IMG/VR virus record: IMGVR_UViG_3300044714_000169
Coordinates: 1-50,547 of that record
Length of the DNA: 50,547 nt
Origin: a virus
Taxonomy: Duplodnaviria; Caudoviricetes
Strand: one strand, 5' to 3'
Shown here piece after piece: positions 17,126-40,418 of this stretch; within the stretch, counting starts at the first letter, position 1; every line of letters begins with the position of its first letter. A program made the translations under genes and the position numbers. The notes under the pieces are model-generated. The model saw only the letters and a program-made list of their open reading frames with translations, was not told the origin of the DNA and ran no database searches.

Positions 17126-17384
17126 TTAAATTCTCCTCTTCGCGTTTTCGCTCCTCTTGTTCGAGGATTGAAGTTAGTTGTTGCTCGGCCTGGGCCGGTA
17201 GAGTTTCGAAATTTCGAAGTTCCTCCATCCTACCTTGAAATTTATGAAGGTCGCGATCCGCCCGGGATGGATCCATTAGCACCATTACGTTGTGCCGACG
17301 TGACTTGAGCAACTGTGTCCGATAGGTTTTGTAATTCGGGTCCTGAAACAGAGCTCTCAGGCTGAGGCACTCCTGCTTGGTCAA
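17064..17384 (-). CDS. Small helical protein following portal (start uncertain)
   Basis: C-terminal part of ORF 17064..17783 (PNYKTY...FQGRMEEL); fills the gap between portal and scaffold. Confidence 0.45.
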   Translation of the reverse strand: MTKQECLSLRALFQDPNYKTYRTQLLKSRRHNVMVLMDPSRADRDLHKFQGRMEELRNFETLPAQAEQQLTSILEQEERKREEENLNARSSIQSRRESRYTAGVAK

Positions 17385-19212
17385 GGGCTCGGGGGTTAGA
17401 TTGAGGCTTACCTCCACCGAGCAATTCTCGCACATCAGGGACCAGTTTTTTCCGGTCGTAGACGTTGAAGGCGAAGAGGATTCGGTTGGAGAGCTCACGG
17501 GCTCCGTCCAACACTTGGAGGCTAAGTTCCTGAGCAGGGCTGCCAGGCGGCATCTGAGCGATTTGCGGAGCCAAAGCCATGATTTCTTTATAGTAAGCAG
17601 ACATAGTGTTAGACATGAGAAGGAGATTTTGGCGATCAACTTCCCTGTTGGCTCCTGCGTCGCTAGCTCCGAGACCGAAGAAGACAGCTCGGAGTTCTTC
17701 TGGATCTTTGATTGAGAAAGCTTGTTTAAGAAAGTCTCCATTTTCCCCATATTGGCTCCAGTCCGCGGATTTCGCGAAGTCACGGTAGTGAACGAAGATC
17801 AGTTGACCTTGTTTGTTGAAACTGCGACGGAGACGTTGAAGGTAGATGTCTTGGCGTTGGTTGCCTTCGGATAGGAGAGCGAGGGTCGCTTGAGAAGCGT
17901 AGATTCCCTTTTTACCGACGGGTCCAGTACCGAATCCTTGTTTCGCGGAGCTGACGCCGGAGTAGCGTTCGGCTAGCGCCATCACTGCGTTTTCTTCCTC
18001 GATCATTGATTCGTAGTTACCACCGAATTCCAACGGTTCGATGTCGTCCATTGAGTCAACTTCGAAGACTTTGCCGGGGTACCACTCGGTCGATGGATTA
18101 GCCCCGGTGTAGGAAGTCTTCTTTTTCCATCCGGGTACGTTGACGATATTGGATTTATCGCGGCGCGCATTATGGATCTGAGCCTGCTCCTCCTGCGACT
18201 GCTCGAGGATGTTAGGGATGCAGTCACCGACAATACTGCCTTCTCGAGGCATGATCCGGAGATCGACAAAGGGGTCAAGGTCGCCTGGCAGATAGTTGTA
18301 CCAGAGACGGATAATACCGTCTTTACCATTCCCGGAAAACGGGTTGAAGGTGAGCACGATATCAGCCATTTTGCCGGGGGTGAGTTCATAGGATCCCCAC
18401 ATTTCGATTACGGTGAAGGGGCGAGTTACGTCAGGGGTTAGTGAGTAACCAGCGTCGTTGGCTAATGAGTCGCGAGCGGAGGAGGTGGTTGATTGGTTGG
18501 TCGACGACCCCATCAACACACTACTCGCTGGACCTGCTGGCCAGCCAAACGGGGGAGGGAGATGACGACGAAATTCGACTTCTTCCTTGGTAAAGCGTAG
18601 TCGGTGGAAGATTGCGGTACAGTCACGGAAGAATTGGGCGGTAACAGGGTAGGGGAATAAATCATCGAATGGGATGTTATCGATTACGAGACTTTCGCGT
18701 GAGAATGATTTAATATTGCCTTCGGCGTCAGCTCGGTCTCGCGTTTCACTAACCCAACAGTTCTTTAACACGTGAAGGCCGGTTTTCACTGTTAGGAAGA
18801 TTCCTAGATCGACCGGGTCAAAGAAGTTGATGTTATATTTACACTCGGTGTCCATCCACTCGCCTAGTGCGTTTAGAACGTTAGCTCCCGGTTTGTTGGA
18901 GAATGTTGCAGGTTTCCAAAACGGTCGAGTTGAAAACATGAGTCCGACGTTGTTTGCAGCGAGTAAGTCGGTATGCATCCGGATAAGTTGGGGGACGAAG
19001 TTTGAGGCTTTGTAGTAGGGGATTGTTCGGATTGCTTGGGCGGGTTTTGCCGCATAGTTATCAACCCAACGACGGTAATCACCGTCGATTTCCTTCGAGC
19101 GGGATTCCACCGACTTCCAGAATTTGTTCTTCGCCCAACCAAAGATCTGGTTCAGTTTATCTACCGGAACGTTTTCGAGTTTCGGGAAGACTGGACAGAT
19201 TTTTATTGGCAT
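17242..19212 (-). CDS. Portal protein
   Basis: 656 aa after TerL; SNFVPQLIRMHTD, EQSQEEQAQIHNARRD, AERYSGVS helical portal motifs. Confidence 0.85.
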   Translation of the reverse strand: MPIKICPVFPKLENVPVDKLNQIFGWAKNKFWKSVESRSKEIDGDYRRWVDNYAAKPAQAIRTIPYYKASNFVPQLIRMHTDLLAANNVGLMFSTRPFWKPATFSNKPGANVLNALGEWMDTECKYNINFFDPVDLGIFLTVKTGLHVLKNCWVSETRDRADAEGNIKSFSRESLVIDNIPFDDLFPYPVTAQFFRDCTAIFHRLRFTKEEVEFRRHLPPPFGWPAGPASSVLMGSSTNQSTTSSARDSLANDAGYSLTPDVTRPFTVIEMWGSYELTPGKMADIVLTFNPFSGNGKDGIIRLWYNYLPGDLDPFVDLRIMPREGSIVGDCIPNILEQSQEEQAQIHNARRDKSNIVNVPGWKKKTSYTGANPSTEWYPGKVFEVDSMDDIEPLEFGGNYESMIEEENAVMALAERYSGVSSAKQGFGTGPVGKKGIYASQATLALLSEGNQRQDIYLQRLRRSFNKQGQLIFVHYRDFAKSADWSQYGENGDFLKQAFSIKDPEELRAVFFGLGASDAGANREVDRQNLLLMSNTMSAYYKEIMALAPQIAQMPPGSPAQELSLQVLDGARELSNRILFAFNVYDRKKLVPDVRELLGGGKPQSNPRALDQAGVPQPESSVSGPELQNLSDTVAQVTSAQRNGANGSIPGGSRPS

Positions 19213-19217
19213 TTAAG

Positions 19218-19403
19218 TTACCGATCGAACGCGTTTGTTTGAGGCCCTCTACGAACTGTATGATGTGCGCCATGAACACTGCCAACTGGAGATACCGTTC
19301 GCAGTCCGGCCTCACCGGAATTATGAGTTCCGGCCCAGGTTCCTCGCGCCCGAGAAGTTCTGCCTGGTTTATGCTTCAAATATCTCCAGTTGGCACTGCT
19401 CAT
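19218..19403 (-). CDS. Small basic hypothetical protein
   Basis: GGAGG RBS; overlaps TerL stop (ATGA). Confidence 0.5.
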   Translation of the reverse strand: MSSANWRYLKHKPGRTSRARGTWAGTHNSGEAGLRTVSPVGSVHGAHHTVRRGPQTNAFDR

Positions 19404-21109
19404 ACATATCCTCCGTATTCATGGCGCGTAGATGTGAACGGTACCTGTTTCGACTTTAAAATCTCCTCATCGTGCTGTCTGGCTTCGATCTCTCCCGGAC
19501 TCAACGGGAATTGACACTCGAACACCGCATATGCGGTAGCGTCAACCTGATCCTTCAGGTGATAGTGAGGGAAGCTAACTATCTGGGTTTTCAACTGAGG
19601 TCGGTCGAGCCGGAGGTAGAGCCGATGCTCTTCGATTGGGTGGGTTAGGTAGAGCCGGATTCGGTCGTCCTTCGAGATCTTTCCGCCTGGAGGGGTAACT
19701 CCCTCCGCCCGCAGTTTTAAGTGTTTAACCCCTTCTCTCCCTTGCTTTTTGCAGATCAGGCATTCGGGCCAAAGGTCGCGTGTGTTGATGATATCCCCGA
19801 CTTCCTTCTGCGCGCCAACGGATTCATACCGGTTGTGGTTAAATCTCATCTTGTCGTTCAGCTGGTGCCATTCCTCAACCATCTGGCCCATGGAGCAGTT
19901 TTTACCGATACATTCGAGTACGAAGATCCGTTTGGTAAAATCACCACCAACCGCCGTGATCGCATTCTCGCATTTGGCCGACTGACCGCCGCTCGACGGG
20001 TCGTAGAAACTGTTTCGAACCAGGTCTTTGAGTTTGACTCGTGGAGATCCGTCGGTGGGGACAATCTCCTGCTTTTCGAAATCGACTTTAAAATACCGTA
20101 GGTCAGCGGAGTTAAAATCACCCCCGGTAGGGGGGATGGGGGAGTTCAGGTAGTTACAGCTGAACAAATACGGGCCTTGACGCTCCAAAATATCCGCCAG
20201 CACCGATTCAGTGAACCGTTGATAAAAGGCGATCGACCCATCATCGTTGTAAACCGAACGCTCAGTCCAAACGAACTTTCCGGGCATGTTGACTTTAATC
20301 CACCCGTAGATATCGGATTCACCCGCTTTCCAGTGAGTACCGATCATCAACTCTTCAGATTCCTCCGGGTGGTTTAACATTCCAGCTGCTGACTGAAACC
20401 AGCTCTGAACCTCGAAAGCGAGCGGTTCGGATTTAGACGCCTTCTCCCCAAAGATATCCTCGTAGATCAACACGTCCCAGTGAAAACCTGTTCGCTTGGC
20501 CCCGACCCCATCACAGGTGATCGTTGACTCGTCGAAGGATTTGGTTCGGGGGATCGTGATCTCAGAGTCAGTCCATTTGGTTTCGTTGGTGTTGGAAGGG
20601 ATGATCTCGGGGAACAACCACCGCAGCATATCGTTGTTTTCAAGATGCCACTTGGGATCGCGGAGATCCTTTTGGGCGACGGTGTCGGATTCACCGATCA
20701 ATAGAAACCGGAGATTTCGGGGATCTCGCTCTGGATAGGCGCGGTAATAGGCCAACAGTTCGACCGCCTGGTTGTGTTTGTCAATCACATCTCCGAGCCT
20801 CAAGATATCGGAGAGGAAGAGGGAGTTACCGCCTGCCAACCGCCATAACATATAGGCTTTGATACAGGTGGATTTAAAATGTCCGCGCGGCTCCAAATAC
20901 CCGTGTTTATTTTTTGGGGGCTTTTGCAGTTTGTCACACAGCTCGAGGTGGAAGTTCAACACCAAATCTTTATACCCCATCACCACCTTGGTAAAGTAAT
21001 AAAGACCACCCGACGGCTCGAAACACTTTCGGCGCAACAGGGAGCGTAGCTCCTCCGCCCGCCCTTCCCCTGCGAGCTGCATTACCGGAGATTGATCGAG
21101 ATTACCCAA
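19400..21109 (-). CDS. terL: Terminase large subunit
   Basis: PRGHFKST Walker A, TGFHWDVLIYED Walker B, FYDPSSG and KDQVDA RNase H-like nuclease motifs. Confidence 0.92.
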   Translation of the reverse strand: MGNLDQSPVMQLAGEGRAEELRSLLRRKCFEPSGGLYYFTKVVMGYKDLVLNFHLELCDKLQKPPKNKHGYLEPRGHFKSTCIKAYMLWRLAGGNSLFLSDILRLGDVIDKHNQAVELLAYYRAYPERDPRNLRFLLIGESDTVAQKDLRDPKWHLENNDMLRWLFPEIIPSNTNETKWTDSEITIPRTKSFDESTITCDGVGAKRTGFHWDVLIYEDIFGEKASKSEPLAFEVQSWFQSAAGMLNHPEESEELMIGTHWKAGESDIYGWIKVNMPGKFVWTERSVYNDDGSIAFYQRFTESVLADILERQGPYLFSCNYLNSPIPPTGGDFNSADLRYFKVDFEKQEIVPTDGSPRVKLKDLVRNSFYDPSSGGQSAKCENAITAVGGDFTKRIFVLECIGKNCSMGQMVEEWHQLNDKMRFNHNRYESVGAQKEVGDIINTRDLWPECLICKKQGREGVKHLKLRAEGVTPPGGKISKDDRIRLYLTHPIEEHRLYLRLDRPQLKTQIVSFPHYHLKDQVDATAYAVFECQFPLSPGEIEARQHDEEILKSKQVPFTSTRHEYGGYV

Positions 21110-28865: not shown

Positions 28866-29038
28866 TGCCATTCCCCTGCGTATCCCTAACAGATCGAACT
28901 TCTGGGAATTATCCGAAGTGGAACAAGAACTCTCAATTTGAGAAGGATTGCCTCAAACAAGTTGGACTGCCGGAGGATTATCATCCAACCGAAGAAGAAG
29001 CTGAGCGGATTGTGATCGCGGCACTAGAAGGTTCCTGA
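28865..29038 (+). CDS. Hypothetical protein
   Basis: TGATG overlap with previous gene. Confidence 0.45.
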   Translation: MPFPCVSLTDRTSGNYPKWNKNSQFEKDCLKQVGLPEDYHPTEEEAERIVIAALEGS

Positions 29039-29114
29039 CGAGAAACATAGAGACGAATGTCCGATTGGTGTGGCTGAGGCTGCTCTCTCTGGGCTCACAA
29101 AGGAAGGGTCACAA

Positions 29115-29438
29115 ATGCATTATCCGAAAATCAAGCATCCCGAATGGCTGAAGTTTTGCACGATTGAGCGCACCTACAAACTCTATCGTGAGGGCAACTT
29201 ACCAGCCTCGATAGAGGGATTTATGCTCGTGACGCCTCTTAAGCACGCCTTGCGGTGTATTTACGGAAGCGATCTTCGTGCAGCCCTAGTGCTATTGCGT
29301 CAGGCTCTTTGGGGCCATGCTAAACGGCCTTATGCCTACGCAAACTGGCTCCTGCACCGCAAGCAATGGGAAAACGAGGAAATAGCCGAAGAGATGAAAG
29401 AGATCGAAGATGAGATTAAGGCTGAGGGTAGAGACTAG
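29115..29438 (+). CDS. Hypothetical protein
   Basis: ATG 29115 after AAGGAAGG. Confidence 0.55.
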   Translation: MHYPKIKHPEWLKFCTIERTYKLYREGNLPASIEGFMLVTPLKHALRCIYGSDLRAALVLLRQALWGHAKRPYAYANWLLHRKQWENEEIAEEMKEIEDEIKAEGRD

Positions 29439-29522
29439 AGGTGGCGCAACGAAAGGGGACACGCGAATGAGTTACACCGAAGAGGGTGAAATTGCAGACA
29501 ACGACGGAAGGACTCGGCCCCA

Positions 29523-29723
29523 ATGACAACCTCTGATCCCAGGACAAAGAGAACGCGCCAAATTAAACGCTGGGCCGCGTTAGATTTCGGTCCGAGGGAA
29601 GAATCGACAGGGTGTCCGCAATGTGGCAGCAAGATACGCTCGTTCAAAGGGCAGCAATGTTACCAAGCGCCCCATGAATGGCACGACGAAAATAATGCTC
29701 ACTACTTGCAGAAAAAGCGCTGA
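29523..29723 (+). CDS. Small protein with CPQC motif
   Basis: AAGGA RBS; CxxC. Confidence 0.4.
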   Translation: MTTSDPRTKRTRQIKRWAALDFGPREESTGCPQCGSKIRSFKGQQCYQAPHEWHDENNAHYLQKKR

Positions 29724-29768
29724 CTAGCTTTGTGGGGCCAGAGAGAACACGGAAGGGAGCAATGAGAG

Positions 29769-30074
29769 ATGAAGTGTAAGCATTGTTTTACCTCAAATAG
29801 CCGAGAGTGTTTCCGAAGTTTTACGGGCTGCAAGATTATCGGCGTTCTGTTCGATGCTTTCCCGCTACGTTGCCGCGACTTGCAGGAAGGCACGCAGACG
29901 TTCGTGTTTGATTGCGGACATGCTATAACCTTCGCCTCTAACGGCTCGTTTTGGCCGGAATCGGACGATGGAGTACGGCAAGCGATTGAAGATACACGCG
30001 AACGCATCAAACGCGACCAACAAGACGCAGAAGGGATTCTCAAGCTGGCTGGAGCTTTACCGGAGGCCCGATGA
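29769..30074 (+). CDS. Hypothetical protein
   Basis: ORF overlapping next start (ATGA). Confidence 0.5.
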   Translation: MKCKHCFTSNSRECFRSFTGCKIIGVLFDAFPLRCRDLQEGTQTFVFDCGHAITFASNGSFWPESDDGVRQAIEDTRERIKRDQQDAEGILKLAGALPEAR

Positions 30075-30691
30075 ACTCTCCTGAGAGCGCCAAGGAACGA
30101 TGCCCGACATGCAAGAGCCCAGATGTCGCAGAGCGCTGGTGTATGTCATGGCACTGGGATGTGACGTTTACTCCGCATCGCGTAGGTGCTACTTTAACGG
30201 GCTGCGTTTTGTGCTTGAACCCCATACACGGCGCGGCTCCTCTGCCCCAGCCTACAGCCCCGCCCGAAACGTTTGCGTCACGCTCAGAAGAGAAGCGTAT
30301 TCGTTCTATGCGTGGCGATCCTAATCCTCTTGATCCGCGTCCGGTGGCTCAGACAATAGAAGCCGAGCAATCACGAGAAGAGTTTGAGAAATGGATGGCT
30401 GCGGAGTACGACTCGATTCGACTAGGGCGAGATCCAGAAAGCGGCTTGTACTTCTCTAATCATGCCGACCGAATGTGGGATACGTGGCAAGCTGCGGCGG
30501 CCTTCTCTGCCCACCAGAAAGCAGAACTAACGCAAACTTTGAGGAATTTGTTGGCAGTAATTCACCGGGACGGAGGTCACTACGCAGCGGAACACGGATT
30601 GGATAAAGCCAGCCTTGATGCCGAGAAGGTTGTTATACAAACAAGAGCCGAGCTTGCGTCTCTCCGCGAAGTTCTGATGAAACTTTCCTAG
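30071..30691 (+). CDS. Mosaic hypothetical protein (N-terminal Zn-binding motif)
   Basis: GGAGG RBS; CPTC...C..C; LRNLLAVIHRDGGHY accessory module. Confidence 0.6.
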   Translation: MNSPESAKERCPTCKSPDVAERWCMSWHWDVTFTPHRVGATLTGCVLCLNPIHGAAPLPQPTAPPETFASRSEEKRIRSMRGDPNPLDPRPVAQTIEAEQSREEFEKWMAAEYDSIRLGRDPESGLYFSNHADRMWDTWQAAAAFSAHQKAELTQTLRNLLAVIHRDGGHYAAEHGLDKASLDAEKVVIQTRAELASLREVLMKLS

Positions 30692-30779
30692 ATAGTCACG
30701 CTGCTGGCGGCGATATTCAACTCGCGCTCCACCCTCTCAGCCGGTCCCGAGAAGGAGAAACACGATCAAAACTCCAATG

Positions 30780-30818
30780 CCACTGGTCCTTGAAATCCTC
30801 CGCAAATTATGATATAAT
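30780..30818 (+). promoter_or_regulatory. Sigma70 promoter with CCACTGG box (replication/modification operon)
   Basis: CCACTGG-TCC-TTGAAA-N17-TATAAT. Confidence 0.85.
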
Positions 30819-30866
30819 TAGGCTTGTTAGAGAACAGAAGTTGATCCCCACAAATCAGGAGGCCAC

Positions 30867-31961
30867 TTGATCGCGAATGTCAGCCGACTTCGACAGTTTC
30901 AAGCTTGTCGGGAGAAAGCGTATAACTGGGATGAGCTGAGATTAACTTCCTATCGTGATGCCGACCCGTTGATGATCGGAGAGGCCTATCACCGCGGTTC
31001 CGAGGTCTTAGCCAAACTGGGTGATATCGAAGCCGCGGTACAGGCAGCGGAAGACACCTTCCGGAAGCGGTTGGAAGGCCAAATGATCCTCCCGGAGGAA
31101 CGCCCTGAAATCGAGCGTGAGATCGAGTTTGTTCGGCATGCCACCCGAGCATGGGCAGCTCACTATGACACCGCCGACTTCAAGATTTTATGGCCGGAGG
31201 TTTCCGGGATGGTTCCGCTGCCAAATACGGAACATCACTGTTTCTTCGTCCATCGAATTCTCTATCCGAACGACCCTAATCCCGCTCACGCGCTGATGTG
31301 TATAGATGCGCGCTGTCGACAACCTCACTTCTTAAAATTCCGCACTGACGGAGTCCTCGAATTCTACCACAAAGTCTGGTTGCTGGAACAAAAGACGACT
31401 AGTTCCACCGCCCGAAACAACTTCTGGCCGAAGTGGAATATGGAATTTCAAGTCGGCTGTTACATGTACGGGGTTTGGAGAAAGACCGGCGTCCGTCCCT
31501 CCGGCGTCATGATCAACGCGATCATCAAACACTTCCAGCGGGATAACTCCCGAAAAACCGACAACGGTGGATACAAAATGAAGTTGGATCCCACCAACGT
31601 CGACTTCGAGCGGGAAGGCTTCGTCTACACCGAGGCGATGTTATTATCGTTCGAGAAAGATCTGATCGCTCAAGCTAACGAATACGAGGCTGCGTTCAGC
31701 AACCCGCTCAAAATCTTCCGAAACACCGATAACTGCTTCAACTACAACCGGGCTTGTTATTACTGGAACCGGTGTCAGAGAAAATACTCGGGCGAAACCA
31801 CCGTTGAAGTTGAAGGCGAATTCCGCGAACGCCCGAAAGACTACGTCGAGTTATCATACTACGAATTGTTGGGGTTACCAACCCCGGAACAAGGAGAAAC
31901 ATGTCAACCGAACGAAGCGAGTGTGAAGACTGCGGACTCGAATTCGACCCCAGTGAGTTAG
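30867..31961 (+). CDS. PD-(D/E)XK Cas4/RecB-like exonuclease
   Basis: SRLRQFQACRE; GEAYH; FRTDGV...LEQKT; QVGCY; C-terminal CFNYNRAC.YWNRC Fe-S-type cysteines. Confidence 0.8.
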   Translation: MIANVSRLRQFQACREKAYNWDELRLTSYRDADPLMIGEAYHRGSEVLAKLGDIEAAVQAAEDTFRKRLEGQMILPEERPEIEREIEFVRHATRAWAAHYDTADFKILWPEVSGMVPLPNTEHHCFFVHRILYPNDPNPAHALMCIDARCRQPHFLKFRTDGVLEFYHKVWLLEQKTTSSTARNNFWPKWNMEFQVGCYMYGVWRKTGVRPSGVMINAIIKHFQRDNSRKTDNGGYKMKLDPTNVDFEREGFVYTEAMLLSFEKDLIAQANEYEAAFSNPLKIFRNTDNCFNYNRACYYWNRCQRKYSGETTVEVEGEFRERPKDYVELSYYELLGLPTPEQGETCQPNEASVKTADSNSTPVS

Positions 31962-32059
31962 ACGTCGACGGTCTTTGTCAAGAATGTCGAGATGGGGGTG
32001 ACGGAGTAGAAGAAGAAGAAGAAGAAGAAGAAGAACAGGAGGAAGAAGATGCCAGTTGA
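31901..32059 (+). CDS. 52-aa highly acidic Zn-finger microprotein
   Basis: AAGGAG RBS; MSTERSECEDC...LCQECRDGGDGVEEEEEEEEEQEEEDAS; (GAA)9 at 32009-32035; not in ORF track. Confidence 0.65.
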   Translation: MSTERSECEDCGLEFDPSELDVDGLCQECRDGGDGVEEEEEEEEEQEEEDAS

Positions 32060-32726
32060 CCGAGTTTGCCTCTACTCAGGCGGGCTCGACTCTACCACGC
32101 TTCTTTGGAGTCTGCGCCCAAACGTGAAAGCCCTGCTCATCAACTACGGGCAACGCCACGCGGTCGAACTCGTCCACGCAGCCAAACTCTGTAACACGTT
32201 CGGGATCGATTATGAAACCGCGGATCTGTCGGGGATCAACCGACTAATCCATAAAGGTAGTCAATCAGGTGACGAACTTCCCCCCGATGGTCACTACGCC
32301 GAGGAAACGATGAAAACCACCATCGTTCCCAACCGAAATTCTATCATGTTATCAGTGGCTGTCGGTTGGGCGGTAGCAACCGGGTGTAAAGAAGTTTACT
32401 TCGCCGCCCACGCTGGCGATCACACGATCTACCCCGACTGCCGACGTCAATTCATCGACAAGTTTGCTGAAGCGATGATCGAAGCTAACTTATGGAACCC
32501 AGTTCTAGTTCGAGCGCCATTTGTCCTGATGAACAAATCCGATATCGTGAAGCTGGCCAATAACCTGGGCGTCCCCTTCCAGATGACCTGGAGTTGTTAC
32601 AAAGGTGACAAAATCCACTGCGGTAAGTGTGGAACCTGCACCGAACGGCGGGAAGCATTCCAGCTAGCCGATATCAACGACACTACCGAGTACGAGTATA
32701 CCGGACCGTTGATGGAGGCGAAGTGA
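32049..32726 (+). CDS. queC: 7-cyano-7-deazaguanine (preQ0) synthase
   Basis: SGGLDS PP-loop, YGQRH, VPNRN, YPDCR, TWSCY...HCGKCGTC. Confidence 0.95.
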   Translation: MPVDRVCLYSGGLDSTTLLWSLRPNVKALLINYGQRHAVELVHAAKLCNTFGIDYETADLSGINRLIHKGSQSGDELPPDGHYAEETMKTTIVPNRNSIMLSVAVGWAVATGCKEVYFAAHAGDHTIYPDCRRQFIDKFAEAMIEANLWNPVLVRAPFVLMNKSDIVKLANNLGVPFQMTWSCYKGDKIHCGKCGTCTERREAFQLADINDTTEYEYTGPLMEAK

Positions 32727-32926
32727 GCATCCTCGACCCCAAAAAAATCGCCCAATCAATCATCTCCGACCCAACCAAATGGGTGTTGATGAAATGTGGG
32801 TTTTGTGGTAACGTCGATCACTGGCGAGTCTTAATCAACGTCACCGGGGTTGTCTGTTGGTGTCAAAAGTGTCAGAAGAAGTACAAACTTGAATCCGATT
32901 CCGGGGTAAAGGTGATAGATGCCTAA
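32723..32926 (+). CDS. Zinc-ribbon protein
   Basis: GTG start overlapping queC stop; CGFC...CQKC. Confidence 0.55.
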   Translation: MSILDPKKIAQSIISDPTKWVLMKCGFCGNVDHWRVLINVTGVVCWCQKCQKKYKLESDSGVKVIDA

Positions 32927-33677
32927 ATTTGCTACAGTCGCAATCGATAGTGTAGGAGAACTCGCTCGCCTCTTCTTCAGCAAGGACATGGGTAAGGGTG
33001 CAAACGACCGTGAAAAAATCCGCGCCATGCAGAACTATCCGGGCGCGACTGAACGGTTAAACATGCTCTGTCGATCGTTGAAACAAAAACGTGACAAGGG
33101 GGTGGAAATTGTCTTCACGGCTCATGAAGATATCGAAAAAGTATACGCTAGGGGCGGCGCCATGGCAGGGAAAGGTCAGGCACCTCCTGATCCAGTTGCT
33201 GTCAAGGGTTGGCCAGATGTCCCGGGTAAGAGGGCTCCCGACGAATTCTGCCGCGCGTGCGATAATGTACTCCGCGTACGTCGAGTTAATAACAGCCCCG
33301 CATGGATTGCTGCACGCGAATCAATCGGAGTTGGCGCGGATTACTGGGAGGTTAAAGACCGGTTTAACGGACCCGCAGTTAGAGCAGGCCTACTACCCGC
33401 CAACTACGAGGAGTTGAAAAAGTCCATCTGCGCGGTAAACCCAGGTTGGTGGCGAGCCCCTTACCTCTGGATGCTCTACGGCCCTTACGGAATCGGGAAG
33501 ACCCGCAGTTTGTTAAGCTTCCCCAAACCAATCTTCGTTATCGACCTCGACAAGGGAACAAAATCAATCACTGAGGAAGAAGCCAAATCCGCCCAAATGA
33601 CCATCGATCAATCTATCGACGTTGAGGAATCCGCCCACTACGACAGATTCTTCGGAATTTTGGAGGCAGCGTTCTAA
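32919..33677 (+). CDS. Sak4/AAA_24-like RecA-fold ATPase, circularly permuted
   Basis: Walker B TVAIDS at N-terminus, IVFTAHE, EVKDRF; Walker A GPYGIGKT and VIDLDKG near C-terminus. Confidence 0.8.
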   Translation: MPKFATVAIDSVGELARLFFSKDMGKGANDREKIRAMQNYPGATERLNMLCRSLKQKRDKGVEIVFTAHEDIEKVYARGGAMAGKGQAPPDPVAVKGWPDVPGKRAPDEFCRACDNVLRVRRVNNSPAWIAARESIGVGADYWEVKDRFNGPAVRAGLLPANYEELKKSICAVNPGWWRAPYLWMLYGPYGIGKTRSLLSFPKPIFVIDLDKGTKSITEEEAKSAQMTIDQSIDVEESAHYDRFFGILEAAF

Positions 33678-33678
33678 C

Positions 33679-33918
33679 TTGACCAAACTAGCCGACCACA
33701 TCCAAATCTCTCTCACGATTTCAGACGAACGTTGGCCTGAAATCACCCTCGTGGGTCAGCGGTCAGGGACCTGCGGAACCGCAGCCGCAATCACCCAAAA
33801 ACAGCAGTACGACCTAGCCTACGGAAAAGGCGAGGAAATGCTGCATAACCTGCTCAGACCGGCAGTCGACGAACTGATAAAACGTCGGAAAGGGCCCAAA
33901 TTAAACCCAGGAGAATAA
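33679..33918 (+). CDS. Hypothetical protein (start uncertain)
   Basis: Fills gap between ATPase and SSB. Confidence 0.45.
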   Translation: MTKLADHIQISLTISDERWPEITLVGQRSGTCGTAAAITQKQQYDLAYGKGEEMLHNLLRPAVDELIKRRKGPKLNPGE

Positions 33919-33919
33919 A

Positions 33920-34348
33920 ATGTTAAGAACAGAAGACATGTCGAAAGTTTCCGACTCCGACCTGATGAAGGAGGGTTGGTATCGGGTACGAATCAGTAAC
34001 GTGAAGGAAACCGACGATTCCGGGAATCAACTTCTCTCCAAAACCGGACAGGAACCAATCGTCGAGTTAACCTTGAAGGTTCAGAACGAGGGGGAGTTCT
34101 TCGGTCGTTCGTTTAAGGACAAACCCTCGCTGCAACCCCACGCGCTGTTCAAACTGAAGGCGTATTACAAAGCGGTTGGGTACGCGCCGGGACCGGAAGG
34201 CCACGATCCGGCAAAGCTGCTGGACGGGGAGGTTTGGGTATGGGTTAGCCCGGGTCAGTATCAGGGTCAACCGGTGTTAAACATCCCCCCGTATTCAATT
34301 CGTAGTTTGCAGGAAGGCGCCGGCGGTCCAGGCGGGAAGAAGAACTAA
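33920..34348 (+). CDS. DUF669-like single-stranded DNA-binding protein
   Basis: EGWYRVRI...SKTG...LTLKV..GEFFGR...ALFKLK; usual partner of Sak4. Confidence 0.75.
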   Translation: MLRTEDMSKVSDSDLMKEGWYRVRISNVKETDDSGNQLLSKTGQEPIVELTLKVQNEGEFFGRSFKDKPSLQPHALFKLKAYYKAVGYAPGPEGHDPAKLLDGEVWVWVSPGQYQGQPVLNIPPYSIRSLQEGAGGPGGKKN

Positions 34349-34452
34349 TGTGGGCGCTCGTGTTGGTAATTAGTTACGGGGCTTTAGTCGTTTGGCTAGA
34401 GTCCCGTAGCGAGCGCAAGGAGAGGGAGAGGTGGAGGAAACGTGGAGATTAG
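34348..34452 (+). CDS. 34-aa membrane-anchored peptide
   Basis: TAATG overlap; MWALVLVISYGALVVWL followed by a basic tail. Confidence 0.4.
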   Translation: MWALVLVISYGALVVWLESRSERKERERWRKRGD

Positions 34453-34981
34453 CAAGGAATTTAAATTTGAGGCGAGTCACGTTTTACCAAACCACCCGGG
34501 TAAGTGTTCCAGACTTCACGGCCACTCCTGGGTGCTGAGAGTTGCGGTAACGGGTGAAGTCAACCGCGAAACCGGCTTCGTGATGGACTACGCTGATTTG
34601 AAGAAGTGTGTCCAGCCGATCGTCGACGCCCTAGACCACCGTCATCTAGGTACTTTCGCACTACCAGGAGGGCAAGCCCCTTTGGCACTTTACCAGTGGA
34701 AGCCTGAAGGCCCCGATATCCACTACCCGAACGAGATCTACCCCAGCTCCGAAAATCTCCTTTGGTGGATTGCGGGACAACTTCACGGCCTCGACCTTTA
34801 TCGGATCAAACGATTCAAACAAGATCCTGAAATTCGGTCTTTCCGACCTGGCGAGATTATCCCCTTCGAAGAGCGCGAGAAGATCGACGTCATCAGCCGG
34901 TGGTCCTACATCCAATTAAACGAAACTTGCACCTCATCAGCAATCTTATGCCGAGACGAATTTAATGCCCTACAACGCTGA
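34442..34981 (+). CDS. queD: 6-carboxy-5,6,7,8-tetrahydropterin synthase
   Basis: FEASH.L, CSRLHGHSW, MDYADLK, LDHRHL, PSSENL, ET motifs. Confidence 0.93.
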   Translation: MEISKEFKFEASHVLPNHPGKCSRLHGHSWVLRVAVTGEVNRETGFVMDYADLKKCVQPIVDALDHRHLGTFALPGGQAPLALYQWKPEGPDIHYPNEIYPSSENLLWWIAGQLHGLDLYRIKRFKQDPEIRSFRPGEIIPFEEREKIDVISRWSYIQLNETCTSSAILCRDEFNALQR

Positions 34982-35288
34982 ACTGCAAATGCTGCGGGAA
35001 TTCTTCCTGTTGAACGCGCCACGAATACTCTGCGTGTTCTGCCATCTACCCATCTACCCACCTGAATTATCCAACCGATTAACCTTCGGGCATCGTCGCC
35101 ACACCAAAGTTCACTTTGCAAATTTCACGGTTCACCACGGAGACGGGAACCGTGAAAACAACACTGACCAGAATTTAAAAAACAGTCACAGCGACTGTCA
35201 CAAGCGTTATCACAAACAACTACTACTCCATGGAGGAACAAATGCCGTTAACAGCAGCCCAAATTCAACAGAAAGTCAACCAAGTTAA
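34965..35288 (+). CDS. HNH endonuclease-like protein
   Basis: CVFC...VHHGDGNRENN...NL...HSDCHKRYH. Confidence 0.75.
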   Translation: MPYNAELQMLREFFLLNAPRILCVFCHLPIYPPELSNRLTFGHRRHTKVHFANFTVHHGDGNRENNTDQNLKNSHSDCHKRYHKQLLLHGGTNAVNSSPNSTESQPS

Positions 35289-35550
35289 CAACTGGGTTAC
35301 CGCGATCGAGGGTAACGCCCACCAAACTGTCGCCTCGGCGATCAAGGGTATCGCCGGGATCATGGGAGATTTCGCCACCGATCTGTTGGAGGCGAAAGCG
35401 GCGTTGGCTGCGCTTCAGTCGAAGACACCCGGGCAAACCCCAGCACCGCCAACCAACCCAAATCCACCCGCAGCCAACCCGAACCCGAACCCAACGCCGG
35501 CACCGGCAGCTCAACCCAACGCGCAGACCCAACCAACAAAAACAGCCTAA
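35242..35550 (+). CDS. Coiled-coil protein with Pro/Asn-rich tail
   Basis: GGAGG RBS; PNPPAANPNPNPTP tail. Confidence 0.6.
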   Translation: MPLTAAQIQQKVNQVNNWVTAIEGNAHQTVASAIKGIAGIMGDFATDLLEAKAALAALQSKTPGQTPAPPTNPNPPAANPNPNPTPAPAAQPNAQTQPTKTA

Positions 35551-35565
35551 GGGAGGAGGTTCCAG

Positions 35566-35616
35566 ATGGCAGGCAAGAAGAAGATGAAAAAGATGAAGGA
35601 CAAGAAGAAACACTAA
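35566..35616 (+). CDS. 16-aa Lys-rich micropeptide
   Basis: GGGAGGAGGT RBS then MAGKKKMKKMKDKKKH*. Confidence 0.45.
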   Translation: MAGKKKMKKMKDKKKH

Positions 35617-35633
35617 CCGAAGGGAGATGATCC

Positions 35634-36362
35634 ATGTCTGATACGGGAGAGGTAAAATTACCGATTGCTGAAACCTTTCACTCGATTCAGGGTGAAGGAC
35701 AGTGGGTCGGTACCCCAATGCACTTTATTCGTCTTGCCGGCTGCCCAGTTGGACGACCTGCCAAAGTCGTGAAGGCGAGTGAGTTTGGGCCTCTCCCGCT
35801 TCTCCCTACCGGGGAACAGGCGATGGCCTGTGCAACGTGGGATGGGAGAGGGTTTTGGTGTGACACCGATTACAACAAGCATGAGGAGGTGCTGATCGAA
35901 CAGCTGTTAGCTGAAACCTGGGAGAAACACATCTGTCTGACTGGAGGAGAACCGTTAATCCACTGGAAGAAGTTGATCGGTGGACTCTTCCCCGGCGCTA
36001 TACGAGACGGGGTCAAAATCCATATTGAAACCTCGGGTACAGTTGACGTCGACTTCGGCCAAATGACGCAGAAGGCTGTAACCGACGTTGACTGGCAACT
36101 TTGGTTCACGTGCGCGCCAAAAATCAACTGTACCGATAACATGATCCGTCACTGCGATGAACTGAAGCTGTTGGTCGACGCCCGCTTCCACCCCGACGAA
36201 CTGACCGACAGTATGCGTAACCACCCTAACGTCTTTCTATGCCCAGTCAACAACGTCGACGACGTAAGACTCGACAACGTCGAGCGCGCGATGTTTTGGT
36301 TACAAAAATTCCCAAATTGGAGACTCTCGTGCCAAATGCACAAGTTCCTAAAAATGCGGTAG
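35634..36362 (+). CDS. queE: 7-carboxy-7-deazaguanine synthase (radical SAM)
   Basis: ETFHSIQGEG, FIRLAGC, WCDTDY, LTGGEP, IETSG, WRLSCQMHK. Confidence 0.93.
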   Translation: MSDTGEVKLPIAETFHSIQGEGQWVGTPMHFIRLAGCPVGRPAKVVKASEFGPLPLLPTGEQAMACATWDGRGFWCDTDYNKHEEVLIEQLLAETWEKHICLTGGEPLIHWKKLIGGLFPGAIRDGVKIHIETSGTVDVDFGQMTQKAVTDVDWQLWFTCAPKINCTDNMIRHCDELKLLVDARFHPDELTDSMRNHPNVFLCPVNNVDDVRLDNVERAMFWLQKFPNWRLSCQMHKFLKMR

Positions 36363-36772
36363 ACTGGAAAGGGGTTTGGGAGGTAATTTTCGGGATCTTC
36401 ACGATCCTAATCTTACTCAACCTGCTCCTAACCCCAGCCCACGCGCAAACAACCACCTGCCCTTCGCCAACCCCAGGTAGCCCGCACATCTGTTTAAAAT
36501 GGACAGATAGTACCACCGCCGGCGCTACCTACAACGTTTACCGCACAACCACCTCGGGAGCGGAAAATTACTCAACCCCACTTAATTCAACCCCGTTACC
36601 AGCGGGAACCACCGCATACTACGACTCAACCGTTGCAGTCGGGACCACGTATTACTACACGTTGGCCGCCGTCGGAACAGGAGGTGTATTGAGCACTCCG
36701 ACCGCTGAGGTCAGTGCTCAAATAACAGTGCCACCTAACACACCTACGGGGCTCAGCGTTTCGGTTGATTGA
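36329..36772 (+). CDS. Exported fibronectin type III domain protein
   Basis: GTG 36329 after GGAG; signal/TM IFGIFTILILLNLLLTPAHA-Q; LKW...YNVYR...YYDSTV..GTTYYY. Confidence 0.7.
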   Translation: MPNAQVPKNAVDWKGVWEVIFGIFTILILLNLLLTPAHAQTTTCPSPTPGSPHICLKWTDSTTAGATYNVYRTTTSGAENYSTPLNSTPLPAGTTAYYDSTVAVGTTYYYTLAAVGTGGVLSTPTAEVSAQITVPPNTPTGLSVSVD

Positions 36773-36790
36773 CTGTGAGGTAACCTACTA

Positions 36791-37156
36791 ATGTTGTTGG
36801 ACTTCAGGAAACCGCAGGTAGCTATCGTCGAAAAGTTCGTCTCGCAAACTGGTAAATACCTCTGTTTCCTGGGCAATCATTACCACAAAGGTCATACCTG
36901 CTGGGTGTTCGGCTCTAGTAATAAGGTTACTGGGGAGATAGTTATGCGGCATTACTCTTCAGCCACCAACTCAATCAGTCCAAAAGCCGAGTGTGAAACC
37001 GCTTGGAGAAAGTTTAAGGAGGGGATGCTTGCCAAACCGAAATCGGACTTTGAAGAAGACACCCATATTACACGCCCTTGGGAGAAGGAACAAATCCGAC
37101 GCGGCGGTAGTCTCGCAGTTGCACTTGCAAAATCTAAGCGAGACAAACCCAATTGA
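36791..37156 (+). CDS. Hypothetical protein
   Basis: GAGGT RBS; operon packing. Confidence 0.55.
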   Translation: MLLDFRKPQVAIVEKFVSQTGKYLCFLGNHYHKGHTCWVFGSSNKVTGEIVMRHYSSATNSISPKAECETAWRKFKEGMLAKPKSDFEEDTHITRPWEKEQIRRGGSLAVALAKSKRDKPN

Positions 37157-37439
37157 CAGATTTTACCGGATCGCGTCTGAGCTGTGCGATCTCCACCATA
37201 AGAAATCCTTAGACTACGGCACCGACGGAGATACCTACCAAAACTTCCGTGGATCGGCGAAGATGGGAATCGAACCCTGGAAGGGTGCTTTCATCCGACT
37301 GCAGGACAAAGTCCAACGAATCTGTAAATTCGCGAAAGACGGTAAGTTGGCCAACGAGTCCGTGATCGACAGTTTCTCCGACCTCGCCGTCTACGCGATC
37401 ATCTGTCGAATTCTGTTTGAAGAGGAGCAAGCTAAGTGA
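37125..37439 (+). CDS. DUF1599/Nmad1-like all-alpha NTP pyrophosphohydrolase (start uncertain)
   Basis: KKSLDYG...NF...IRLQDKVQR...ESVIDSFSDLAVYAII. Confidence 0.75.
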   Translation: MQNLSETNPIDRFYRIASELCDLHHKKSLDYGTDGDTYQNFRGSAKMGIEPWKGAFIRLQDKVQRICKFAKDGKLANESVIDSFSDLAVYAIICRILFEEEQAK

Positions 37440-37984
37440 ATCAACATCAGATTGAAAACGGGGTTACCCTAATCTTGAAGGGCTTGGGTTGCGACCCCAA
37501 AGACCACAACTACACCGATACACCCGAACGTTACGCAAAAGCCCTGCTCGAGATGTTCCAACCATCCGATACCGAATGGGCAACCTTCGAGGAGAACTTC
37601 AATGACTTCATCCTACTACGCGGGCATAAAATGTGGTCGCTTTGCCCGCACCATCTGCTTCCCGTCCACTTCACCGTTAGTCTCGCCTACGTACCTAACG
37701 GAAATGTTCTCGGGCTTTCGAAACTGGCACGGCTTCTGGATGAGTGCAATAACGGTCCCCTCCTCCAAGAAAGATTTACCAAACTGGCGGTGGATAAGGT
37801 TGGACAGGTATGTCCTGGGATTAAAGGAGCTGCATGTCTCGTTCATGGCACTCACTCCTGTCTTTCTATGCGTGGGGTTAAAAGCTCGGCAGACTTTGTC
37901 ACGTATAAGTTGGGTGGGGTGTTCGAATCAGACAGTTCGTTAGAGCAGAGATTTTTCACGTTGGCGCAGAGAAGGGAGGGTTAA
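37436..37984 (+). CDS. folE: GTP cyclohydrolase I
   Basis: DTPER, SLCPHHLLP, GLSKLARL, LQER, HSCLSMRGV. Confidence 0.95.
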   Translation: MNQHQIENGVTLILKGLGCDPKDHNYTDTPERYAKALLEMFQPSDTEWATFEENFNDFILLRGHKMWSLCPHHLLPVHFTVSLAYVPNGNVLGLSKLARLLDECNNGPLLQERFTKLAVDKVGQVCPGIKGAACLVHGTHSCLSMRGVKSSADFVTYKLGGVFESDSSLEQRFFTLAQRREG

Positions 37985-37985
37985 A

Positions 37986-40418
37986 TTGGCCGAAATCGTC
38001 TGGGGTGAGGGACCCTTCTCCGCTCGATTAATCATCATCGGGCAGAATCCAGGTCCCGAAGAAATGGAACAAAATCGGCCGTTCGTCGGGGCCAGCGGGA
38101 GAATACTCGACCATGCGCTACAAAAAGTGGGAATTCGTCGCTCTGATTGCTTCATCACTAACGTTTGTAAGCATTTTATACCTCCTGGTCAACCAGTGCC
38201 CCCATTGCTGTTATCCGCGGACCGTCCAATGTTGGATAAAGAGCTCGGGATGCTCCACAACGCCCAGGTGATCTTAACCCTGGGAAAAGAAGCCTTCGAG
38301 TCGTTAACCTGGAAAGACCTCCAAATCCGCCACAACCGAAAGGGCGCGGAGAAGAAAAAGAACGCTTGGTTGCGCGGTTGCCCGTATCAATGGGGGAAAT
38401 ACTGGATCATTCCCGCTGTCCACCCTTCCTTCATCATGCGTACCGGCTTTATCGAGTCCCCACTATTTGAGGTTGACCTTGACCGCGCCCGTCGGTTCGC
38501 GTTCGAAGCAGCCCGACCCCCCGAGGATCACTACCATGACAACTGTACCGATCAAGAGATTCGAGATTACGTTAGACTTTGTGTTGACAGGAAAGAATGC
38601 GGACTTGACATCGAAACTCCTGAAACAACTGTCGACGATGACGACCTCGACCCGAGTATCGTCTCTCCTATCGACCTTATCGGATTGTCTGCGGAAATCG
38701 GAGAATCCGTCGGAGTTCGTCAAGATCAATTCGATCTCCTCCGACCACTCTTCGACGATACTTCTCGATACCCAGTCACTGTCTGGGGGCATAATTGCGG
38801 CGCTTTCGACTTCTACCACATCACCAAAACGTTAGGGTTTAAATTTGGAGGGATAAAGCGTGCTGACGCTATGCTGGGAATGCACTTGTTGTGGAGCCAC
38901 CTCACAAATAAAGACGCAGCTACCTGTTTCAGTATCTTCACGGATATCCCGTACTACAAGAACACCCGCAAGCTTGATCCTCACTTCTACGATACCATTG
39001 GAAATTGCCGAGACACCTATGGTGCACTTTGGGCGGGACGAAACATCCTGCGCGAAATGCGGAAACATCCTGGGATGGAGAGTCTGTTTTGGAACCATAT
39101 GATGGGTGCGGTAGACATCACCAACGAGTGGAGGGTGGTTGGAATCAACACCGACCAAAATCGAGCCGGTCGTGATCTGTTAGTCTGTGGGTTAGCACTA
39201 CAACAATACGAGGAAATCTGGAACAAACTAATGCCGTTTGTCAGCTGGTCTTCCCCCAAACAACTGATCGAACTATTTCGGAAACAAGGCCTGCCAATCT
39301 TCAAGCGAAAAAGGCCGGGAAAGAACGGTGGCCCACCCAAATTCACGGAGACATGTGATGACGACGCGCTCGAAATCTACGTTAAAAGGTTTAACAGTCA
39401 AATCGCCAAACTCGTTCAGGAAATGCGAGTCCTCGCGCACGCAGCCGACTTTCTCGATGTCGCTCGAGCAGATGGGCATGTGAGTCCACGATTTAAACTT
39501 GCTGGCCAGGTCGGTGGCCGAGTTCAGGCAGTTGATCCTGATCTCCAAAATATCCCGGAAACGATTGCTGGAGTATTCCCTCGAGCGATATACATTCCAG
39601 ATCGGCCAAGTGAACAAGTGTTTGGAATTACTGACTTCTCTCAGATTGAATACCGACTCTACGTCACCCAGGCCAAAGACCAAGCGGGGATCGATCAGAT
39701 AAACTCGGGAGACTACCTGTATGGCTTCTTCTACGAAGATATCTTCAAAGAACCGTTCTTTCTCCCCAACCGACCTCGATCCAAATCCAATATCGACCCG
39801 AACGTACCACCATGGAAACTTCTCGTTGCGAAGTCATGGCCGCTGGGATTTATCTACGGAAGAGGGGTCCCTGCTGCTACAGGTCTGCCAATTACTAACC
39901 GAGACTGTGAGCGTATTTACAGCAAGTTCCACCAAGACCATCCACGGATCCAGCCATTCCACACTGAATTGCTCTACACCGCTAGCCGGGTTGGTTACCT
40001 TCTTAGCCCATTTGGCCGCATGCGACGTTTTCCAAACAGCAAGGGGCAGAGAAACGAAATCCTCTCATTCCCCGGACAAGTGGTCGCAGTTGATGTCTTA
40101 TTCCGCAACGCACTGCTCCCGCTGCCAGAGATTCTTAAAGAGCGGTTCGGGGGCCGTCTACTCTTTAGCGTTCATGATTCCGTCGGCTGGTGCGTTAGGA
40201 AAGAGTTTGCCAAACAAGCTAGAGAAACCGTCGACGAAACCATGAGCGCGGCGCTGGCCGAGTTGGGAGGGCTACGGATACCCGTAGAAACAAAACTGGG
40301 TCCAAACTGGGGTGAAGCGAAACGATACGAGGTCTACTTTGGAAACACTAACTCCGCGCCAACAACTGGAACGCTTCCTCCAAATGTTGAATCGACAAGT
40401 TTGGGGGCGGGACAGTAA
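37986..40418 (+). CDS. polA: Family A DNA polymerase with N-terminal uracil-DNA glycosylase-like domain and 3'-5' exonuclease
   Basis: UDG: IIGQNPG..E..RPFVG.SG, HPS. Exo: LDIET, GHN..FD. Pol: LQNIP, DFSQIEYR, AKSWPLGFIYG, VHDS. Confidence 0.9.
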   Translation: MAEIVWGEGPFSARLIIIGQNPGPEEMEQNRPFVGASGRILDHALQKVGIRRSDCFITNVCKHFIPPGQPVPPLLLSADRPMLDKELGMLHNAQVILTLGKEAFESLTWKDLQIRHNRKGAEKKKNAWLRGCPYQWGKYWIIPAVHPSFIMRTGFIESPLFEVDLDRARRFAFEAARPPEDHYHDNCTDQEIRDYVRLCVDRKECGLDIETPETTVDDDDLDPSIVSPIDLIGLSAEIGESVGVRQDQFDLLRPLFDDTSRYPVTVWGHNCGAFDFYHITKTLGFKFGGIKRADAMLGMHLLWSHLTNKDAATCFSIFTDIPYYKNTRKLDPHFYDTIGNCRDTYGALWAGRNILREMRKHPGMESLFWNHMMGAVDITNEWRVVGINTDQNRAGRDLLVCGLALQQYEEIWNKLMPFVSWSSPKQLIELFRKQGLPIFKRKRPGKNGGPPKFTETCDDDALEIYVKRFNSQIAKLVQEMRVLAHAADFLDVARADGHVSPRFKLAGQVGGRVQAVDPDLQNIPETIAGVFPRAIYIPDRPSEQVFGITDFSQIEYRLYVTQAKDQAGIDQINSGDYLYGFFYEDIFKEPFFLPNRPRSKSNIDPNVPPWKLLVAKSWPLGFIYGRGVPAATGLPITNRDCERIYSKFHQDHPRIQPFHTELLYTASRVGYLLSPFGRMRRFPNSKGQRNEILSFPGQVVAVDVLFRNALLPLPEILKERFGGRLLFSVHDSVGWCVRKEFAKQARETVDETMSAALAELGGLRIPVETKLGPNWGEAKRYEVYFGNTNSAPTTGTLPPNVESTSLGAGQ

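Follow-up and report, generated by a model that had tools for sequence, protein, structure and literature searches.

A Sak4-like ATPase gene with rotated motif order, probably a functional circular permutant, in a lineage of uncultured phages

The window analysed here is the whole 50,547-nt stretch of the IMG/VR virus record IMGVR_UViG_3300044714_000169 (Duplodnaviria; Caudoviricetes). It is a complete virus record with a 128-base direct terminal repeat (bases 1-128 are the same as 50420-50547) and is rated 100% complete in the direct-terminal-repeat class; hence the window is a whole phage genome. At 32919..33677 on the + strand lies a gene with an ATG start that encodes a 252-residue Sak4-like protein (Pfam AAA_24, probable RecA fold), the motifs of which occur in rotated order. 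A Shine-Dalgarno-like sequence, AAAGGTGA, is located just 5' of the ATG, which overlaps the stop codon of a small zinc-ribbon open reading frame (ORF) preceding the gene. The protein belongs to a family of about 250 residues lacking extra domains, and each Sak4 motif is present once.

The chain opens with the Walker B strand (ATVAIDS, residues 5-11, 32931..32951, + strand, as are all parts of the gene), which begins 4 residues after the new N-terminus. The Asp10 residue of this strand aligns with D139, an invariant residue of the canonical set (numbering is that of P0133, a canonical-order relative from a metagenome). A loop containing the invariant alignment columns K26, I34, R35 and Y40 follows (residues 25-40, 32991..33038), modelled with predicted local distance difference test (pLDDT) values of 62-79. 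From its site, as in RecA-like proteins, this is likely to be an L1-like DNA-binding loop. The next segment (33120..33197) consists of the AHE motif (residues 68-70, including H69 and E70), which ends a long central strand, and a Gly-rich loop (residues 76-93) of pLDDT 63-64. E70 falls opposite E197, which is invariant in the canonical set, and the position of this second low-confidence loop, again as in RecA-like proteins, makes it the likely L2-like DNA-binding loop. Both loops hold invariant residues despite their lower model confidence. Farther along are the CDNVLRV motif (residues 114-120) and the EVKDRFN hairpin motif (residues 144-150, 33348..33368; K146 and R148), which the canonical relatives share as WEAKDRxGR and in which R148 is aligned to R279 of P0133.

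The ancestral termini are joined at 33405..33464. Here the former C-terminal helix (residues 163-173) leads into a 9-residue linker, NPGWWRAPY (residues 174-182), and then into strand beta-1; LPANYEEL (residues 159-166) aligns with CPPDWNEL close to the C-terminus of P0133. Strand beta-1 and the Walker A P-loop, LWMLYGPYGIGKT, thus fall in the C-terminal third of the protein (residues 183-195, 33465..33503; GPYGIGKT at residues 188-195 with K194 and T195). They are followed by strand beta-2, IFVIDLDKG (residues 205-213, 33531..33557), which provides the acidic-residue site within a D-L-D-x-G motif (D211 and G213). The last helix (residues 240-251) and the new C-terminus (…LEAAF, stop) occupy 33636..33677, and the canonical counterpart of this helix continues into the Walker B strand. 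Both the Walker A pattern GxxxxGK[ST] (residues 188-195) and the Walker B pattern hhhhD (ATVAID, residues 5-10) are intact. In P0133 'KAKYRALAVDS' comes directly after the helix that ends in '…VANFD', and the window protein ends '…LEAAF' and begins 'MPKFATVAIDS'. Hence, the new termini map to the loop between helix and Walker B strand, give or take a few residues, and nothing has been lost.

This order (Walker B, AHE, CDNVLRV, EVKDRF, Walker A, VIDLDKG and a final helix) is the one that the initial annotation, made from the letters and their translation, had described, and reading of the translation bore it out. The DxExG form that it gave for the strand after Walker A in Sak4/AAA_24 proteins differs from the motif here, which is D-L-D-x-G. 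The acidic residue and Gly of the Sak4 beta-2 strand are supplied by D-L-D-K-G with Asp replacing Glu. The D211 site is Glu (E-G-G) in most canonical relatives, and P0133 likewise has DLDLG.

Profile searches gave the rotated order directly. Pfam AAA_24 (PF13479) matched the protein with an E-value of 4.5e-14, scoring 53.2 bits where the cut-off is 27, in two non-collinear stretches, the better of which paired residues 184-234 with profile positions 5-57 of 195, where the profile has its Walker A start. PHROG_124, 'Sak4-like ssDNA annealing protein', also matched in two stretches (E 2.6e-21), the better one pairing residues 3-150 with profile positions 108-236 of 382. NCBIfam TIGR01618 paired residues 3-85 with profile positions 81-157 of 220 at 28.1 bits, a score under its cut-off. 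In BLASTP comparison with P0133 the Walker B half (query 3-166, subject 132-298) was 34% identical (E 5e-20) and the Walker A half (query 184-245, subject 63-122) was 41% identical (E 7e-11). These non-collinear stretches agree with the earlier statement that all elements are present once each in rotated order. A full-library search returned 39 proteins, and ranked under the permuted family were proteins of about 310 residues that matched in two stretches, with query residues 3-150 falling on their residues ~130-280. The collinear order of Sak4 proteins (Walker A, acidic beta-2, Walker B, C-terminal hairpins) is not found in the window protein. A collinear full-length match to a known family, which the initial annotation had named as the result that would speak against permutation, was absent from the Pfam, PHROG and NCBIfam profile searches, nor did we find a Pfam, PHROG or NCBIfam model dedicated to the permuted family.

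Canonical-order relatives were found in metagenomes (P0133, P0135-P0144 and loci L019, L020 and L021), the closest being ~34-41% identical per half to the window protein. Thirteen of 14 canonical relatives match PF13479 collinearly (in P0133, residues 61-221 on profile positions 3-153). These proteins are ~310 residues long and most carry an insert of ~45 residues after strand beta-2, in contrast to the ~250 residues of the permuted family. P0133 and L021 resemble the permuted family in their D-x-D-x-G motif form and in having no such insert, but have an N-terminal extension of ~60 residues before beta-1, of pLDDT <50, that has no counterpart in the permuted family. A hidden Markov model (HMM) was built from the 14 canonical-order relatives and tested on 27 members of the permuted family. 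All 27 gave two non-collinear domains, with HMM positions 127 to ~280 on residues 3 to ~160 and HMM positions 15-60 on residues ~183-225. In a rotation test, each of the 27 proteins was concatenated with itself. The best canonical-HMM domain then spanned the C-to-N junction in every case (HMM ~100 to ~280, from about residue 232 of copy 1 to about residue 165 of copy 2) and the score of the window protein rose from 118.2 bits in native order to 124.2. Alignment of the permuted with the canonical profile by hhalign gave a probability of 99.9 and an E-value of 5e-35 for the Walker B half. Thus, both segments have their homologues in one single-domain protein, with the order exchanged, and duplication of the query restores collinearity, as expected of a natural permutant. 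Both the two non-collinear AAA_24 matches and the effect of re-permutation in silico had been anticipated by the initial annotation.

The rotated order is conserved. Of 665 candidates in a word-indexed search, 167 proteins scored E<=1e-3, and the 120 listed of these, to which all of the per-residue counts given here refer, are 229-275 residues long and 52-100% identical to the window protein, with query coverage of 91-100%. They come from several sources, many sit on contigs of 46-51 kb and all are collinear with the window protein, so that the permuted homologues that the initial annotation had called for are plentiful. The Walker A Lys-Thr pair lies in the C-terminal third of all 120. K194, T195, H69, D115, K146, G191, G213, R52 and E236 are likewise present in 120/120, D211 in 119 (the other has E), R148 in 118, E70 in 117 and D10 in 118, the remaining two being N-terminally truncated calls. 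Residues of the linker are specific to the family, W178 being found in 114/120 and Y182 in 118/120. The positions of both termini are conserved among 27 aligned members. The window protein retains, where aligned, all 12 columns that are invariant in the 14 canonical relatives, including loop residues beyond the ATP site. Judged by this pattern of residue conservation, the permuted Sak4 is apparently under selection as an enzyme.

We considered whether a tandem duplication left the gene as a decaying remnant, in which the Walker B half of one copy was joined to the Walker A half of the following one to give a non-working product. Duplication and fusion are the usual route to permutation, and in a single genome a dead intermediate would look alike. 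However, in the 120 listed homologues (52-100% identity) the termini fall within a few residues of one another and the catalytic residues are kept in 118-120 of 120. Moreover, the gene is the only AAA_24 match in the complete genome, no relic halves are seen in its flanks and the protein gives a confident single-domain model (below). The conservation data already contradict such a remnant, which we regard as highly improbable. Separately, one of the permuted loci (L012) has the first ~20 residues of its Sak4 homologue in another frame (3940-4002 versus 4001-4693), which could be a frameshift or a sequencing error.

The window is metagenomic and the only sequencing run containing the entire stretch, a soil metagenome, may be its own source, and thus the rotated order might be ascribed to local misassembly or to a chimeric contig. 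Of the sequencing runs listed for the stretch, none is an RNA run. Against misassembly, a separate assembly pipeline produced a 50,447-nt contig (depth 27.1) that shows 0 differences from the window over 32053-34500 and is free of gaps and joints there, an agreement in line with the read-coverage check that had been proposed. Eighteen viral loci of IMG/VR (16 full and 2 truncated), which come from different records, share the rotated order, as do the 120 listed proteins. Given that the rotated order is repeated across so many records, misassembly cannot explain the permuted Sak4, and we give an assembly artefact virtually no weight.

An AlphaFold2 model built with a 27-sequence alignment is one compact domain with a pLDDT of 87.6, a predicted template modelling (pTM) score of 0.84 and no segment below 50. 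Its first half consists of a strand at 6-10, helices at 12-24 and 41-59 and strands at 63-75, 94-99, 116-123 and 126-130. The second half has a helix at 163-173, a strand at 183-188, a helix at 196-200, strands at 205-209 and 227-230 and a helix at 240-251. The P0133 model has these same secondary structure elements, of which the order here is rotated, and the new junction (helix 163-173, linker and strand 183-188) is modelled with pLDDT values of 92-96. Searches that compare structures sequentially gave little with the permuted model. Foldseek against the PDB returned 0 matches at E<=1e-3, versus at least 500 with the canonical P0133 model, RAD51, Sak4 and KaiC among them. The top match of an exhaustive VIA search was the Sak4 of phage 52A (8rc5; Z 7.8, root-mean-square deviation 2.9, 128 residues), but the aligner is sequential and placed only the Walker B half, model residues 1-174 on chain residues 88-259. 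RecA (3cmu) was next (Z 5.0, model residues 1-161 on 135-260). The P0133 model aligned with the 8rc5 chain from one end to the other (Z 18.9, 204 residues, model 31-306 on chain 10-259) and reached Z>=8 with 69 chains. A sequence search of the PDB gave 8rc5 as its only match (E 1.6). In BFVD there were partial matches to AAA-domain phage proteins with template modelling scores of 0.29-0.47, none full-length; the top one was A0A516LUR7, a 248-residue protein with 204 aligned columns, a score of 0.47 and 16% identity. Such weak sequential structure matching is as expected for a permutant.

The position of the gene relates it to ordinary Sak4 genes. Canonical-order loci were found by use of an alignment of 7 closer sequences. 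In L020 a nuclease 31% identical to that of the window (E 4e-44) is followed by a collinear AAA_24 gene and then by queD and queE, and in L019 a homologous PD-(D/E)XK nuclease lies directly before a collinear AAA_24 gene. Unlike the permuted loci, queC was not seen between nuclease and Sak4 in the stretches fetched for L019 and L020. Given the shared module, the permuted gene sits where an ordinary Sak4 gene is found. P0133 itself was found on no viral contig and on a single 1181-nt metagenome contig that has no flanks.

A tree constructed with no outgroup from 34 permuted proteins and 16 canonical ones placed all 34 permuted rows on one side of a branch with support of 83/89 and in 81% of the bootstrap trees. 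The tree does not contradict a single origin of the permutation as judged from these sequences. Given the long branches and the lack of an outgroup, the ancestral canonical lineage is not identifiable from it. Duplication and in-frame fusion followed by trimming is the textbook route to permutation. Most likely the permutation arose once, and by this route a canonical gene would have been tandemly duplicated and fused in frame, after which the outer halves would have been lost. The event is probably old.

The neighbours of the gene are those of a recombination module. A PD-(D/E)XK nuclease gene lies upstream (30867..31961, +; PF12705, E 2e-7, 31.6 bits versus a cut-off of 22), and such a gene precedes the permuted Sak4 in 18/18 loci. 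Downstream is a gene for a 142-residue DUF669-family protein (33920..34348, +; PF05037, E 0.086), 14 of 17 orthologues of which match PF05037, the best at 5.7e-7. The order nuclease, queC, permuted Sak4 and DUF669-like gene is found in all 16 full viral loci, and the 2 truncated loci contain the nuclease, queC and the start of the permuted Sak4 gene. The exonuclease-Sak4-DUF669 neighbourhood that the initial annotation had reported intact is therefore kept, but its genes are not strictly adjacent, as queC and a small ORF intervene. The small ORF (33679..33918, +) lies between the Sak4 and DUF669 genes and has an uncertain start, a TTG at 33679 coming directly after the Sak4 stop codon. It has tblastn matches in 13 of the 16 full loci and no Pfam, PHROG or NCBIfam family. 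The gene order is interleaved with a full gene set for synthesis of preQ0 (7-deazaguanine): QueC at 32049-32726, QueD/PTPS at 34442-34981, QueE at 35634-36362 and GTP cyclohydrolase I at 37436-37981. Downstream of the DUF669 gene, queD is present in 15/16 full loci and queE where the locus extends that far.

The phage Sak4 proteins provide a framework for function. The HK620 Sak4 is a core-only RecA homologue that binds single-stranded DNA (ssDNA) and anneals complementary strands only with ATP, and is stimulated by an adjacently encoded single-stranded DNA-binding protein (SSB) (PMC5928155). The Sak4 of phage 52A makes filaments with ATP-gamma-S (PMC11846896). The sak4 genes are commonly located upstream of SSB genes, including those of DUF669 (PMC8093625), and breaks in phage DNA are mended through homologous recombination by a DUF669 SSB acting with an AAA protein (PMC13687109). 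DUF669 proteins are described as SSB partners of Sak4/AAA proteins in all three of these reports (PMC5928155, PMC13687109 and PMC8093625). By analogy, the DUF669-family protein of the window is the likely cognate SSB of the permuted Sak4, and the latter is most likely the ATP-dependent ssDNA annealase of a nuclease-annealase-SSB module, an assignment based on family and neighbourhood. We therefore propose, with the families as our guide, that the protein would bind and anneal ssDNA in an ATP-dependent manner, that it would load on ssDNA exposed by the PD-(D/E)XK nuclease and coated by the DUF669 SSB, and that it would serve recombination-dependent replication and break repair of the 50.5-kb phage.

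The main alternative for this locus is that the protein is indeed permuted and keeps its ATPase fold intact but is no longer a recombinase or annealase and instead acts, for example, as an accessory to replication or to 7-deazaguanine modification of DNA. The location of queC between nuclease and Sak4 and of queD and queE after the DUF669 gene, in 16/16 full loci (queD in 15), could be taken in this sense. The 7-deazaguanine pathway is also partly unaccounted for, in that a six-frame search of the complete genome gave no TGT/DpdA-family transglycosylase, and the function of the permuted Sak4 is assigned through its family and neighbourhood. However, nuclease and Sak4 are paired with no intervening queC in L019 and L020, all of the canonical invariant columns are kept, including those of loop residues outside the ATP site, and nuclease, Sak4 and DUF669 SSB form a recombination module that has been described (PMC8093625 and PMC13687109). 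We consider an accessory role of this kind unlikely.

We conclude that the gene product is very probably functional and of natural origin, a circular permutant of an ATPase of the Sak4-like, core-only RecA-fold type (Pfam AAA_24). This conclusion draws on the rotated order, its conservation in the lineage, the retention of all catalytic motifs, the confident modelling of one domain and the positional orthology with canonical Sak4 genes, each of which was observed directly, and the interpretation as a natural permutant put forward in the initial annotation is supported by the order conserved in homologues and loci. Relative to canonical Sak4, the chain starts 4 residues before the Walker B strand and runs through the likely DNA-binding loops, the C-terminal hairpins and a helix. 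The 9-residue linker then joins the old C-terminus to beta-1, the P-loop and the acidic beta-2 strand, and the helix that normally precedes Walker B is last. By comparison with the families, the ATP site would be rebuilt unchanged in three dimensions and only the topology of the chain would be altered.

Several observations weigh against this conclusion. The acidic residue after beta-2 is Asp versus Glu in most canonical relatives, and G193 of the P-loop varies in 7 of the 120 listed homologues. The Z of 7.8 to 8rc5 is within the range that, by the account of the VIA search tool, a common arrangement can produce, and the placement of residues 175-252 (the Walker A segment) in the predicted structure depends on the high pTM and on homology, the aligners being sequential. 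The DUF669 match of the window falls below the Pfam cut-off. The covering 50,447-nt contig may share the source sample of the window. Support for the permuted clade is moderate, and its nearest canonical rows, P0133 and P0143, have long branches and an uncertain position. Finally, traces of the presumed route were not seen. None of 2348 candidates among longer proteins (442-2000 residues) scored as a duplicated or fused form, which is weak evidence, and a six-frame profile scan of 21 loci (18 of them permuted) and of window positions 28920-37677 gave no relic half-genes apart from the gene itself.

The protein can be compared with several known systems. It resembles the Sak4/AAA_24 proteins (HK620; staphylococcal phage 52A, PDB 8rc5) in its significant profile matches, its Walker A and B motifs, its AHE motif and KDR hairpin and its DUF669 SSB and nuclease neighbours. 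It differs in having profile positions ~100-195 first and 5-57 last, in the conserved 9-residue linker that joins the old termini, in the Asp after beta-2 and in the failure of sequential structure searches. The 'Healer' module of a Pseudomonas phage (DUF669 SSB Gp63 and AAA protein Gp64; PMC13687109) is similar in its adjacent genes and replication-region location, but differs in gene order and in the chain order of the AAA protein; the likeness is one of descriptions. The role proposed for that module is to repair broken phage DNA through homologous recombination. The DUF669 protein of the window is short (142 residues) and shows no long Pro/Gln-rich tail, unlike Gp63 as described there. The permuted P-loop GTPases (the YlqF/YawG 'YRG' family and cpRAS; PMC2430557) likewise have a natural rotation of nucleotide-binding motifs within one P-loop domain in a conserved family. 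However, as reported they are TRAFAC GTPases rather than RecA-fold ASCE ATPases, with another cut point and other biology, and the relationship is one of analogy rather than of family-level homology. The permuted P-loop GTPases are thus a known precedent in another class.

We found no report of a circularly permuted Sak4/AAA_24 protein or of a natural permutant of the RecA/Rad51 core in the literature covered, subscription papers lying outside that coverage. The 'permuted' match in PMC8093625 concerns genome termini rather than the Sak4 chain, and of two literature candidates for a permuted RecA or P-loop ATPase one is on methylases and the other on engineered peptides. The searches of sequenced organisms were likewise negative: tblastn against cultured phages (INPHARED) gave no match to the permuted family at E<=1e-3, and among representative prokaryote genomes 94 pattern matches yielded 0 confirmed, hence no host or prophage copy was found. 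It is possible, and we put this forward tentatively, that the protein is both the first natural circular permutation to be described in the core of the RecA/Rad51 superfamily and the sole recombinase of widespread, uncultured soil phages of ~50 kb that carry 7-deazaguanine genes.

Throughout life, ATPases of the RecA fold power recombination, replication and transport. If our reading is correct, the RecA fold tolerates termini placed directly ahead of the buried Walker B strand, and these moved termini and the new linker could alter how filaments assemble, how partners are loaded or how host systems aimed at phage recombinases recognise the protein. A conserved and apparently functional permutant would be a natural experiment on how the fold assembles, which connections are dispensable and where new termini are permissible. 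It may also be of use in protein engineering, for split or sensor recombinases and for new recombineering annealases. For the uncultured phage lineage, the permuted Sak4 would define the recombination module. The contrast between 0 Foldseek matches and at least 500 for its canonical cousin exposes a blind spot of annotation. Given this failure of sequential searches, similar permutants may sit unrecognised among viral proteins labelled 'fold unknown'.

Other features of the locus and genome were also recorded. The queC genes adjoining the permuted Sak4 (L001-L018) fall into two classes, 30-33% and 48-62% identical to the queC of the window, which suggests gene replacement inside an otherwise syntenic module. 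Between nuclease and queC (31901-32059) is encoded a 52-residue protein with a CxxC…CxxC pattern, a C-terminal run of ~17 Glu/Asp residues and a weak match to PHROG_6107. An HNH-like ORF (34965-35288; Pfam HNH_3, E 0.038) lies between queD and queE. It is present in 9 of 16 loci (L001, L002, L004, L006, L009, L010, L011, L015 and L016) and in none of the others, a patchy distribution that fits a mobile homing-endonuclease gene. An 810-residue ORF at 37986-40415 encodes a family A DNA polymerase with an N-terminal domain of the uracil-DNA-glycosylase superfamily. Elsewhere in the genome are an SU10-type adaptor gene (6080-6835), a portal match below its cut-off (17242-19209) and a large terminase gene (19400-21106), and the structural module resembles those of SU10-like phages.

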